From IMG/VR virus record IMGVR_UViG_2897352509_000011: 64,000 nt of DNA, one strand, 5' to 3'. The DNA comes from a virus (taxonomy: Duplodnaviria > Heunggongvirae > Uroviricota > Caudoviricetes). The position numbers were made by a program. Shown here one piece after another: positions 33,001-36,000 of the stretch; the stretch's first letter is position 1, and each line of letters opens with the position of its first letter.

Positions 33001-36000
33001 GTACTCCCGGTACAGAAAAGCCTCATCCACCGAATAACCGAGATTCGGGTTAACCATGGCGAGGTTTTCCATCAGCAGGTGAGCCCCGCTTTCCACCATT
33101 TCAGGAGGATGCTCAAAAATCACCGGCAGAAAGTGCGGATCATGAATTTTGCCGTCACGGACATCCCGGGCGTACTGCAGTTTCTGTCTGAACCCCCCGG
33201 CTGGCGGCTCATTCGACTGGGTGGTCGTATACACCACAAACCCTTCCGGGCGGGAGGCAAGGCCGCCTATGGCTTCACGTAACATGTCCTCCGCTTTGTA
33301 CTGCTTGCCAAATAACCACAGTTCATCAATCAGCGTCCCCACGGACTTGATACCGGATACCGTATTCGGATCGGCAGCCACCACCTTCAGGGTGGTGTCC
33401 GTCACCCTGTGGGTGATGGTCCGGATATGTGTCTGCACCTGACAGAGGTCATCCAGATCATCGTCCCGTCGTACCATATCCCTGGCAGGGTTGAAGGCGT
33501 TAGCCGCCACCTCCACGGTCGGGGCCAGAATGGTGTAGCCCGCCGCCTGCCGCCAGTTCAGTAACAGCGCCGTCATCATGATCCCGGCAGCCAGCGTGGA
33601 CTTGCTGTTTTTCTTGGGGATAAGGATAAAAACTTCCTTGATATGGCGTACACCGGTCTGCGCATCGTAGGAGCCAAACAGGGCCGCCACCAGGTCAAAC
33701 ACCCACTGTGCGCAGGACTCCCCGAACGTCGGGCTGCCCGGTGCATCCACAATCCGCAGTTGTTTAAAAATCGCCAGGGCATGTGCGGCCTGCTCCGGAT
33801 AAATCGGAGCCGGAATAATCGACAGCCCCTTTTTCAGGCGCTCTGCCCAGTCCGGGCAGGCCGTGCTCCACACAGGTATCATCCGTTGCCCTCATTATCA
33901 TTATTCACCACCAGGCGGGGTGGTGGTGGCACCGCAAAACGGTTAGCCGCTTTTTTCGCCGCGTCACCTTTTGCCGATTTTTTACCGGCATCCCCTTTTT
34001 TGTGGTGCGTGAACTGCGCCAGCTTATAAGCCGCATCCAGCGCCAGCCTGGGGTCGGTATTAATGTTCTCCACCAGAAGACGCCCCATCGCTTTCACCGG
34101 ATCGGGAAGACCGTCCTCCATATACTCAATACCAGGAGATATCACCACGGGCGGTGGCATCTCCGGATTTGTTTCGTCCGGCTGTGGTATTGCAGCCGCC
34201 TCACGGCGACGGGGTTTATCCTCCGGCTCTGATTTTTTCTGCCGATAAACAGGAACCTCATCCACCTCCACCGTCTCGCACTGTTTACGGGCTATAAACG
34301 CAAGCACCTCCGGATCTTTTGCCAGCTGCGAGCCTTTAACCCTGGCTGTCTTCGCCGAATAACCGGCGGCAAGGGCTGACGCTGTTTTGTTTTTCCCGGA
34401 CATGAGCGCCAGCGCAAATTTTCGTTTTTGCGTTGTCAGCACAGCCTCCTCCCGGGTCCAGAACGCACTCAGCCGGGTATGGTTCAGCCCATTTTTCCCG
34501 GCGTCTCATGCCGCAAATGTTAACTGCTGCCTGGTTAACATTTGCTGAAAAAGCCAGTTAACATTTTTTCCGCACAACAAACTGAATAATAAAGATAAAA
34601 ACCGCAAAAATGCCCGGACAGCCAGTTAACATGTTAACTGCCCTGAAACGGGAATTTTTTCTCTGCGTGAGACGGGGGGCGGTGTCCGGAGCGATCGTTT
34701 TTTTCGCCGGATGATCCCCCCCCCCGGGGCGGGTCACAGTCCGATGATATCGTCTGCCCTGCCATGACCTCCGGACACCTCCGGCAGCGTCGGGTCCGGC
34801 ATACCACCCGCCGCTTCACGAGCAGACTTTTGTCGATGGCATTCGGTACAGAGCGTCCAGAGATTCGTCTCCTCATTACCACCACCGAACTGAAGTGCAA
34901 TTCGGTGATCGAGTTCACTGTCACAGAGGTCAACCACACGACCACAGAGACAGCACTGCCCGGCATCCCTGAGCCAGATATGACGCTTGAGGGAAACACG
35001 TGCACTGCCACTGACACGACGCTGTTCACCCTTCAGAATATTCACCCGCCGGGTGTTCAGAGTTTTGATTCTGCCCGGTAACGTACGAAGCACAGCCATG
35101 TAAAATCCTCGCCATATAGCTTGTCACCAGAGGAAAGAAAATGTCATCGAAAAACCGGCCCCGCAGAACAACAACCCGCAACATCCGATTTCCAAACCAG
35201 ATGATTGAACAAATTAACATCGCTCTTGACCAGAAAGGTTCAGAAAATTTTTCTGCGTGGGTCATTGAATCTTGCCGCCGGGAGCTGGCAGCAGACATAA
35301 AATATGCCCGTCAGTTGACTATAAAAAAGAATGATACACAGTATGCTCTGCGATGGCTGTTCATATAACTATTTCTTTATATTGCTGAATTTATAAAAAC
35401 TCACAGACATTAGCTGTATTAATTCCGAATTGAAATAATCAGCCATATAGAATAAAAATAAAGCATAACAATAATAATCTTCTACCCAATCAGTACATTA
35501 CTGCTGTGACTCCAACACGGCAGTTTTTTTATTGAACAGATTCCAGTTTCTTCCACCATCGCACCGGACGGGCGACCATGAGGGGAGAACGCCGCGCTCC
35601 GTTTACGCGGTAAACCCCGGTGTGTATCGTTTTTGATTATCCCCGCACACTCGCGCAGAAGGAATTCCCCGTCGGGCTACGGTCATGGTTAATGCGGAAA
35701 TACAGCGACGATACAGCGCATGATGTGTCAGGCTTGAATACCTTTATCCGTTAAAAGGGATATCAGTTAAGTTATCCCGTGTAGGGTATAAGCCATTATC
35801 AAGCCCACCAGTAGATGGGCTTTGTAATGGCTACTTCGCTTTTGCTTCCGCTCGCTTACGCCGGCGCTCTTCTTTCCTCTCGGCTTTTGCCATGTCCATG
35901 AATGCCTGCATGATCGAGTTCCGCATCATGTAGCTAACAAAGTGATGATTGACACAGCCGTTGAGGCGCAGCTGCTCGCCAAACTCATCCACCGAGGCCA

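Follow-up and report, generated by a model that had tools for sequence, protein, structure and literature searches.

The packaging genes and the interval between HNH and terS

In the 64,000-nt stretch of DNA analyzed here (the window; IMG/VR virus record IMGVR_UViG_2897352509_000011, Caudoviricetes), a gap of 291 bp at 34443-34733 separates a gene encoding an HNH endonuclease from terS, which encodes the small terminase subunit (Table 1). We read this interval, on the minus strand, as the cohesive-end (cos) site of a lambdoid Shiga toxin (Stx)-type prophage that packages its DNA in the manner of phage HK97, and we put the probability of that reading at roughly 85%. The large terminase gene, terL, follows terS, and a protease-capsid fusion recognized by Pfam is encoded downstream. 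All the late genes lie on the minus strand, and the cos site is therefore to be read on that strand. With the HNH gene adjoining the site upstream and terS and terL directly downstream, the order HNH-cos-terS-terL is the HK97-type arrangement, in which the HNH protein assists cos cleavage (PMC9410871, PMC11331095, and PMC13595911, each citing Kala et al. 2014), as the original prediction for this locus had supposed.

The TerL protein is related to HK97 gp2, with 23% identity over 461 aa (BLASTP, E = 1e-10). Its sole match by sequence in the PDB is 6Z6D, which we take to be the HK97 TerL; the entry is named only "Terminase large subunit," and the matched range mirrors that of the gp2 alignment. 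The Pfam matches of TerL were limited to TerL_ATPase and TerL_nuclease, with none to a lambda gpA-type family. The N terminus of TerS resembles the DNA-binding domain of SF6/SPP1-type small terminases, a profile of four TerS homologs matching PDB entries 3ZQP, 4ZC3, and 2CMP. We did not find similarity between TerS and HK97 gp1, and none was detectable by BLASTP between the HNH protein and HK97 gp74. The HNH gene carries an HNH endonuclease annotation in phages 2851 and BP-4795. Judged by gene order, TerL homology, and the cut-site homology described below, the interval is an HK97-type, HNH-associated 3′-cos site in function and in membership, albeit with a TerS of the Terminase_2/SF6 type rather than of the HK97 gp1 family.

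The gap region is 97-99% identical to that of many Stx phages, 2851, BP-4795, 1717, and YYZ-2008 among them. Records of such near-identical phages are nearly all prophage extractions; the record of phage Lys8385Vzw (MT225100) derives from induced particles. The length of the G tract and the decamer were compared among 78 close relatives, and column variability was assessed in 69 distinct related sequences.

Table 1. Genes and sequence elements of the packaging locus, in window coordinates.
Feature	Position	Strand	Basis or remark
terL, HK97-type large terminase, 553 aa	32221-33882	-	Pfam TerL_ATPase and TerL_nuclease
terS, small terminase, 187 aa	33879-34442	-	Pfam Terminase_2, E = 4.5e-8
Three distal GTTAAC-core repeats, candidate auxiliary TerS sites	34517-34526, 34534-34543, 34555-34564		Within the ~190-nt stretch missing from 74 of 80 relatives, which are compact
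Proximal 18-bp perfect palindrome CAGTTAACATGTTAACTG with two GTTAAC cores, candidate primary TerS site	34623-34640		Position common to relatives
Left-end core CTCACGCAGAGAAAAAATTCCCGTTTCAGGG (CNCACGC, A tract, TTCCC)	34641-34671	-	Conserved in SP-016, Bcep176, fEg-Aba01, and 80 prophages of other genera
Predicted cohesive-end decamer CGCCCCCCGT (plus strand ACGGGGGGCG)	34672-34681	-	Homology to mapped ends of relatives
Spacer ATCATCCGGCGAAAAAAACGATCGCTCCGGACAC between G tract and cut, 34 nt, ending in GGACAC	34682-34715	-	Alignments
G10 tract on the phage strand (C10 on the plus strand)	34716-34725	-	Only long homopolymer in the window
HNH endonuclease gene, 121 aa	34734-35099	-	Open reading frame (ORF); Pfam HNH PF01844, E = 7e-7

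Predicted position and sequence of the cohesive end

The cut can be placed by homology to phages whose ends have been mapped. Lys8385Vzw was classed by PhageTerm as a cos phage with 3′ cohesive ends, its cos being CGCCCCCCCT at the genome end (Zhang et al. 2021, PMC7946995). The record ends ...GGACACCGCCCCCCCT and restarts CTCACGCAG / CTCACGCAGAGAAAAAATTCCC..., so that it is linearized exactly at the homologous point; among 94 matching phage records it alone is split within the cos region, and the PV189401 record, for example, is linearized at terL. When these ends are aligned with the window, where the minus strand reads ...GGACAC CGCCCCCCGT CTCACGCAGAG..., the homologous decamer occupies 34681-34672 and differs by one base. 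Nicking of the minus strand at 34671/34672 and of the plus strand at 34681/34682 would produce 10-nt 3′ overhangs. The GGACAC at 34682-34687, which is conserved, abuts the bottom-strand nick.

More distant phages agree in register. The Acinetobacter phage fEg-Aba01 has the 3′ end CGCCCCCCAT, demonstrated with PhageTerm and with a heating and slow-cooling gel assay (PMC7354433). Its record ends ...GGACACCGCCCCCCAT, of which the last 10 nt are annotated as the 3′ cohesive end, and the left end reads CGCACGCACAAAAAAAATTCCC, after which come three AAGTTAAA repeats and terS. The record of Burkholderia phage Bcep176 has the 10-mer CGCACGTTCC at both ends, continuing with CTCACGCGCAGAAAATTTTCCC...GTTAATGGCTTTAAC, again in register with the window. 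The right end of HK97 reads G9-ATCA...(42 nt)...ACCGCCGCCAAA, in register with G10-ATCA...(44 nt)...ACCGCCCCCCGT in the window. The comparison with cos sites of HK97-like phages that the original prediction had proposed therefore gives aligned ends for HK97, fEg-Aba01, and Bcep176, and the motif GGACAC/CGCCCCCC[GCA]T/C[TG]CACGC is common to the window, Lys8385Vzw, and fEg-Aba01. Cohesive 3′ ends of 9-10 nt have been demonstrated in the virion DNA of Lys8385Vzw and fEg-Aba01, in register with 34672-34681; that the interval is a cos or terminase-recognition region is upheld by these mapped ends, and we infer the cut position in the window from its homology to three or four independently mapped phages. 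The records of Pseudomonas phage vB_Pae_CF53a, Burkholderia phage vB_CB2a, and Vibrio phage K254 are not linearized at cos and were left out of the evidence on ends.

Weak support for the cut position comes from a close relative (IMGVR_UViG_2681813226_000009), an isolate-assembly contig that starts with TCTCACGCAG, the equivalent of 34672 and within one base of the predicted cut. Such a start may reflect linear, packaged phage DNA present in the culture that was sequenced. The decamer is polymorphic among the close relatives, which carry CGCGCCCCCT (45 sequences), CGCCCCCCGT (16), CGCCCCCCCT (13), or the 9-mer CGCCCCCGT (4), so co-resident prophages of this family could carry mutually incompatible sticky ends. 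One arm of a 14-nt inverted repeat, GGCGGTGTCCGGAG / CTCCGGACACCTCC at 34678-34691 and 34769-34782, takes in the cut-adjacent GGACACC, and the other falls at the 3′ end of the HNH gene. That gene also holds a direct ACCTCCGG repeat, at which two of the relatives have a 10-nt deletion.

A conserved cos module in other genera

One genome per species was scanned with a TerS alignment, which gave 80 loci from the Enterobacterales, Burkholderiales, Pseudomonas, Xanthomonas, and Acinetobacter. A cos profile built from four cos sequences matched directly upstream of terS in 80 of 80 loci. The module spans ~105 nt and consists, in order, of the G tract, a spacer of ~33 nt, a near-invariant (G/T)(G/A)AC(A)CC, a variable G/C-rich 10-mer, a near-invariant CNCACGC.CAGA, an A/T tract, TCCCC, and a GTTAA...TTAAC element. 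Conservation in the module is highest in the flanks of the overhang, with GACC/ACACC the least variable columns upstream of it, and lower in the overhang itself, as expected if the nucleases read the flanks. In 74 of the 80 relatives the module is compact and lacks a stretch of ~190 nt that is present in the window. The terS start codon of these compact relatives lies inside the GTTAA...TTAAC element, in the form ATG[GCT]TTAAC (ATGGCTTTAACAGC, encoding MALTA, or ATGTTAACAGC, encoding MLTA).

The GTTAAC repeats

Exact copies of CAGTTAACAT are found at 34517-34526 (minus strand), 34555-34564 (plus), 34623-34632 (plus), and 34631-34640 (minus). The original prediction had reported these four copies in both orientations. 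A fifth copy that it did not count is present as the core only, TGGTTAACAT, with GTTAACAT at 34534-34541, and orientation is set by the flanking bases alone, GTTAAC itself being palindromic. The repeats are laid out as an 18-bp palindrome, one solo copy, and one pair of 12-nt inverted repeats (GCAAATGTTAAC/GTTAACATTTGC, at 34513-34524 and 34534-34545). Among 5,000 dinucleotide-preserving shuffles of the 291-bp gap, a 10-mer was present at least four times in 3, and an 8-mer at least five times in 10. The five cores lie at +34 to +153 from the cut, or +32 to +155 if the flanked copies are considered, and all are on the terS side.

The proximal palindrome is as far from the cut as GTAAACATGTTAAC / GTTAATGGCTTTAAC is in all relatives, where the element holds the terS start codon. 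In the Stx-phage group, ~190 extra nt lie between the proximal element and the present terS start, which in the window reads GTG CTG ACA (34434-34442) and has lost the motif. A long spacer with extra GTTAA repeats and a displaced terS start without TTAAC has arisen independently in prophages of Paraburkholderia, Cupriavidus, and Comamonas (at ~1400-1510 in loci L133, L165, and L170), the Comamonas locus having three tandem GATGTTAAAGCG units at a 12-nt pitch. The displaced terS starts in the window and in these three lineages read CTGAC, CTTAC, or CTAAC, and the cos-proximal element has been kept and multiplied. Over the 80 loci, GTTAA/TTAAC has a density of 31.7 per kb from the cut to the start of terS vs. 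1.13 per kb elsewhere, and among close relatives of the window only 1 of 30 columns within the GTTAAC cores is variable compared with 36 of 199 in the rest of the spacer (p = 0.026). The GTTAAC cores are probably TerS recognition sites, functionally like lambda cosB or the +15 to +29 site of HK97. One further exact copy of CAGTTAACAT, at 61200-61209 (minus strand), is far from cos within a 315-aa ORF (61037-61984, plus strand) and is probably there by chance.

The G tract

The C10 run that the original prediction had singled out at 34716-34725 is present and is the sole C or G run of at least 8 nt, or A or T run of at least 9 nt, in the 64-kb window. Read on the phage strand as a G tract, it ends 44 nt before the top-strand nick, and it is a separate, positionally conserved element upstream of the cut rather than the cut itself. 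Its length ranges from 5 to 11 among the 78 close relatives. In 77 of the 80 loci of other genera, the predicted cut comes 40-50 nt after the end of a run of at least four G residues (at least five residues in 68), where ~0.004 would be expected from the rest of the loci.

Physical genome ends give the same picture. We assembled 13 right ends: that of Lys8385Vzw, that of the window (predicted), and those of 11 independent phages with HK97-type TerL whose records were taken as linearized at the physical ends, namely HK97, fEg-Aba01, Bcep176, Xanthomonas phages Xp10, OP1, and phiL7, Gordonia phage Nymphadora, Mycobacterium phage Porky, Arthrobacter phage Bridgette, Paenibacillus phage Dragolir, and Nocardia phage NBR1. 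In 12 of these, the distance between the end of a run of at least five G residues and that of the record is 36-49 nt, with OP1 at 36 nt; in the thirteenth, phiL7, it is 32 nt, and the records of phiL7 and OP1 may omit the overhang. The tract is seen also in the low-GC phages of Paenibacillus and Acinetobacter, and for Dragolir a 9-nt 3′ overhang is documented (PMC6070908). In most of the 13 phages the overhang starts with CG and is preceded by AC. No description of a G tract or of a cosQ-like element in HK97-type cos sites was found in the literature searched, which included HK97 packaging papers and did not extend to the original HK97 genome paper (Juhala et al. 2000) or to Kala et al. 2014. 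The tract falls within the last ~50 bp packaged, the relative position of lambda cosQ, and its strict positional conservation suggests, speculatively, a role in the terminal cut or in slowing of the motor.

Prophages of the PPompW type have an IS110-family insertion sequence (IS), ISEc20, placed exactly in the C/G run (L176, LC567822.1, 2875-4333, inserted at approximately window position 34720; also L065). In these prophages nothing remains from the HNH gene to the lysis genes, the tRNAs and Q directly follow the IS, and the right half of cos is lost.

Proposed packaging mechanism and its alternatives

In phage orientation the site would be laid out as the HNH gene, the G tract (34725-34716), the 34-nt spacer ending in GGACAC, CGCCCCCCGT (34681-34672), the core beginning CTCACGCAGAGAAAAAATTCCC..., the GTTAAC cores (34640-34517), terS, and terL. 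On the concatemer, TerS would use its SF6-type N-terminal domain to bind the GTTAAC sites that lie shortly downstream of the cut and would position TerL, and TerL and the HNH protein would make staggered nicks around the decamer to leave 10-nt 3′ overhangs of the kind demonstrated in near-identical and homologous phages. Packaging would then run from 34671 toward lower coordinates through terS, terL, and the head genes and stop at the next cos, with the G tract ~44-53 bp within the final portion of DNA taken into the head.

Several points weigh against this reading. The cut in this prophage is transferred by homology from the virion DNA of relatives; as many as two decamer positions differ between close relatives and the window, and 4 of the 78 relatives have a 9-mer; and the coordinates in the Lys8385Vzw paper are garbled, though the record ends agree with its text. 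Homologs of the HNH protein were found upstream by tblastn in only 46 of the 80 loci of other genera. The cos profile that placed the cut in those loci itself contained the G tract, which may bias the alignment slightly, and a tract that varies from 5 to 11 nt in close relatives cannot need an exact length to function. The test of core conservation is modest, given how alike the close relatives are. In compact relatives, common ancestry and the conservation of M-(A)-L-T codons, and not a DNA site, could account for part of the GTTAA enrichment.

Among the alternatives, the best surviving one accepts the cos site and concerns only the three distal CAGTTAACAT repeats, which might be functionless duplication remnants of the ancestral terS 5′ end, or elements of terS expression. 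The proximal palindrome does sit at the ancestral position of the terS start, a repeat reads as ATG TTA AC (M-L-T), and compact relatives manage with one element; against remnants, the GTTAAC cores are almost invariant in the 69 distinct sequences while the spacer around them varies, and lineages in Paraburkholderia, Cupriavidus, Comamonas, and Acinetobacter gained extra GTTAA repeats independently of one another. As to expression, the repeats create a weak promoter-like match, but on the plus strand only, the wrong strand for terS; it is the sole such match in the HNH-terS gap, in which no intrinsic terminator was found either. We regard this alternative as unlikely, though more probable than those that follow.

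Headful packaging, with the repeats forming a pac site for an SF6/SPP1-type TerS, would suit the Pfam Terminase_2 assignment of TerS and its DNA-binding domain, which is like that of the pac phage SF6. It is nevertheless highly improbable: Lys8385Vzw is classed as a cos phage with 3′ ends, the 10-nt ends of fEg-Aba01, whose TerS and cos are homologous, can be annealed, the ends of Bcep176 and HK97 are fixed, and the TerL of the window groups with that of HK97 and has an HNH gene adjacent.

Still less credit can be given to a lambda-type cosN with 12-nt 5′ cohesive ends at GGGGCGGGTCAC (34726-34737). The original prediction had likened this motif to the lambda cohesive end; it is indeed present, G/C-rich, and located in the HNH-terS gap, but its likeness to GGGCGGCGACCT is loose, with just 6 of 12 positions matching in register when compared by eye. 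The motif includes the stop codon of the HNH gene (TCA on the plus strand, 34734-34736) and varies more than any other stretch of the region, 11 of its 12 columns being variable, with 13 variants among the relatives (69 distinct sequences). The mapped ends of homologous phages, Lys8385Vzw included, contradict a cut of this type, lying ~50 nt away at the equivalent of 34672-34681 and having 10-nt 3′ rather than 12-nt 5′ overhangs, and TerL is HK97-like, without a match of the lambda gpA type. No match of at least 8/9 to the IHF consensus WATCAANNNNTTR was found in 34443-34733, which has only short A/T tracts, and this counts against a lambda-type cosN and a cosB-type bend.

Finally, a 59-aa ORF (34558-34737, minus strand) is open and is annotated as a "putative secreted protein" in the record of phage 2851, but it is very probably not a gene, and a protein-coding role for the interval is scarcely tenable, since the ORF is unannotated in most records, overlaps the cos core, and crosses a G tract whose length of 5-11 in relatives does not preserve the frame.

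No Rfam match at E up to 1 was found in 34200-35200 that would indicate a structured RNA. Just past the HNH gene, a DUF3950 gene (75 aa, 35141-35368, plus strand) lies on the strand opposite to the late genes, in a position kept in related Stx phages.

Novelty and significance

The site as such is already known, the cohesive end of a phage ~98% identical having been published. Two points may be new, and both come from the comparison rather than from the window itself: the G tract keeps its position from one HK97-type cos site to the next, and the start codon of terS is linked to the site that TerS probably binds. Taken together, these observations lead us to a tentative proposal, which we consider possible but more apt to fail than to hold in its entirety. 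A G run on the 3′-overhang strand, located ~40-46 nt upstream of the right cohesive end, would be a general and apparently undescribed element of HNH-assisted cos sites of the HK97 type in Proteobacteria, Actinobacteria, and Firmicutes, and might be cosQ-like, being sensed in the TerL/portal channel or slowing the motor. It would be accompanied by an AC^CG overhang rule and by a TerS recognition element, GTTAA...TTAAC, normally embedded in the start codon region of terS itself, the motif being lost from displaced starts where duplication of the element has given a separate array, as in the Stx phages. In the HK97 system, now a structural model for cos packaging, a termination element is missing, and the G tract is a concrete, testable candidate for it.

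For a family of Stx-type prophages widespread in enterohemorrhagic Escherichia coli, the reading proposed here fixes the ends of the virion genome and corrects a tempting analogy with lambda. An exact cos helps to orient and compare Stx phage genomes, to recognize defective prophages such as those of the PPompW type with an IS in the G tract, and to understand transduction and possible hijacking by satellites.

Comparison with known cos sites

The nearest known system is Lys8385Vzw, which is ~97-98% identical over the whole HNH-terS gap, is alike in gene order, repeats, and G tract, and has its 3′ end CGCCCCCCCT at the homologous position. It differs in one base of the decamer (C, where the window has G) and in a G tract of 7 rather than 10, and its published description covers the 10-mer only, without the repeats or the G tract. 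In fEg-Aba01 and Bcep176, TerS and TerL are both homologous to those of the window, the cos sites align over ~105 nt, and GTTAA repeats lie between the cut and terS; these sites are, however, compact, with terS starting ~40-70 nt after the cut, and the repeats of fEg-Aba01 are direct copies of AAGTTAAA without palindromes. The lambda cos site (cosQ-cosN-cosB) is similar in plan, having a cut site, small-terminase sites on the side of the terminase genes, and an upstream element in the last DNA packaged, but it has 12-nt 5′ overhangs, a gpNu1/gpA terminase, the IHF site I1, and no HNH gene, and neither a terminase of the gpA type nor an IHF match was found at the locus described here.

HK97, with a 10-nt 3′ overhang and with gp1 as TerS, gp2 as TerL, and gp74 as the HNH protein, shares the order HNH-cos-terS-terL and a homologous TerL. 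In both cos sites a G tract leads into ATCA at 42-44 nt from the right end, and ACCGCC, again in register, is found where the overhang starts; the TerS site of HK97 is downstream of the cut beside an A tract (PMC11331095). HK97 differs in that gp1 belongs to a family unrelated to the Terminase_2/SF6-type TerS of the window and binds a single 15-bp site at +15 to +29 (PMC11331095), whereas the window has five GTTAAC cores at +34 to +153, and the left half of its cos cannot be aligned with that of the window. Although this is a correlation from two taxa, it points to a modular construction of HK97-type cos sites: the right half, consisting of the G tract, spacer, and AC^CG overhang, is common to HK97 and the window, whose TerL proteins are related but whose TerS proteins are not, and the left half tracks the TerS family.

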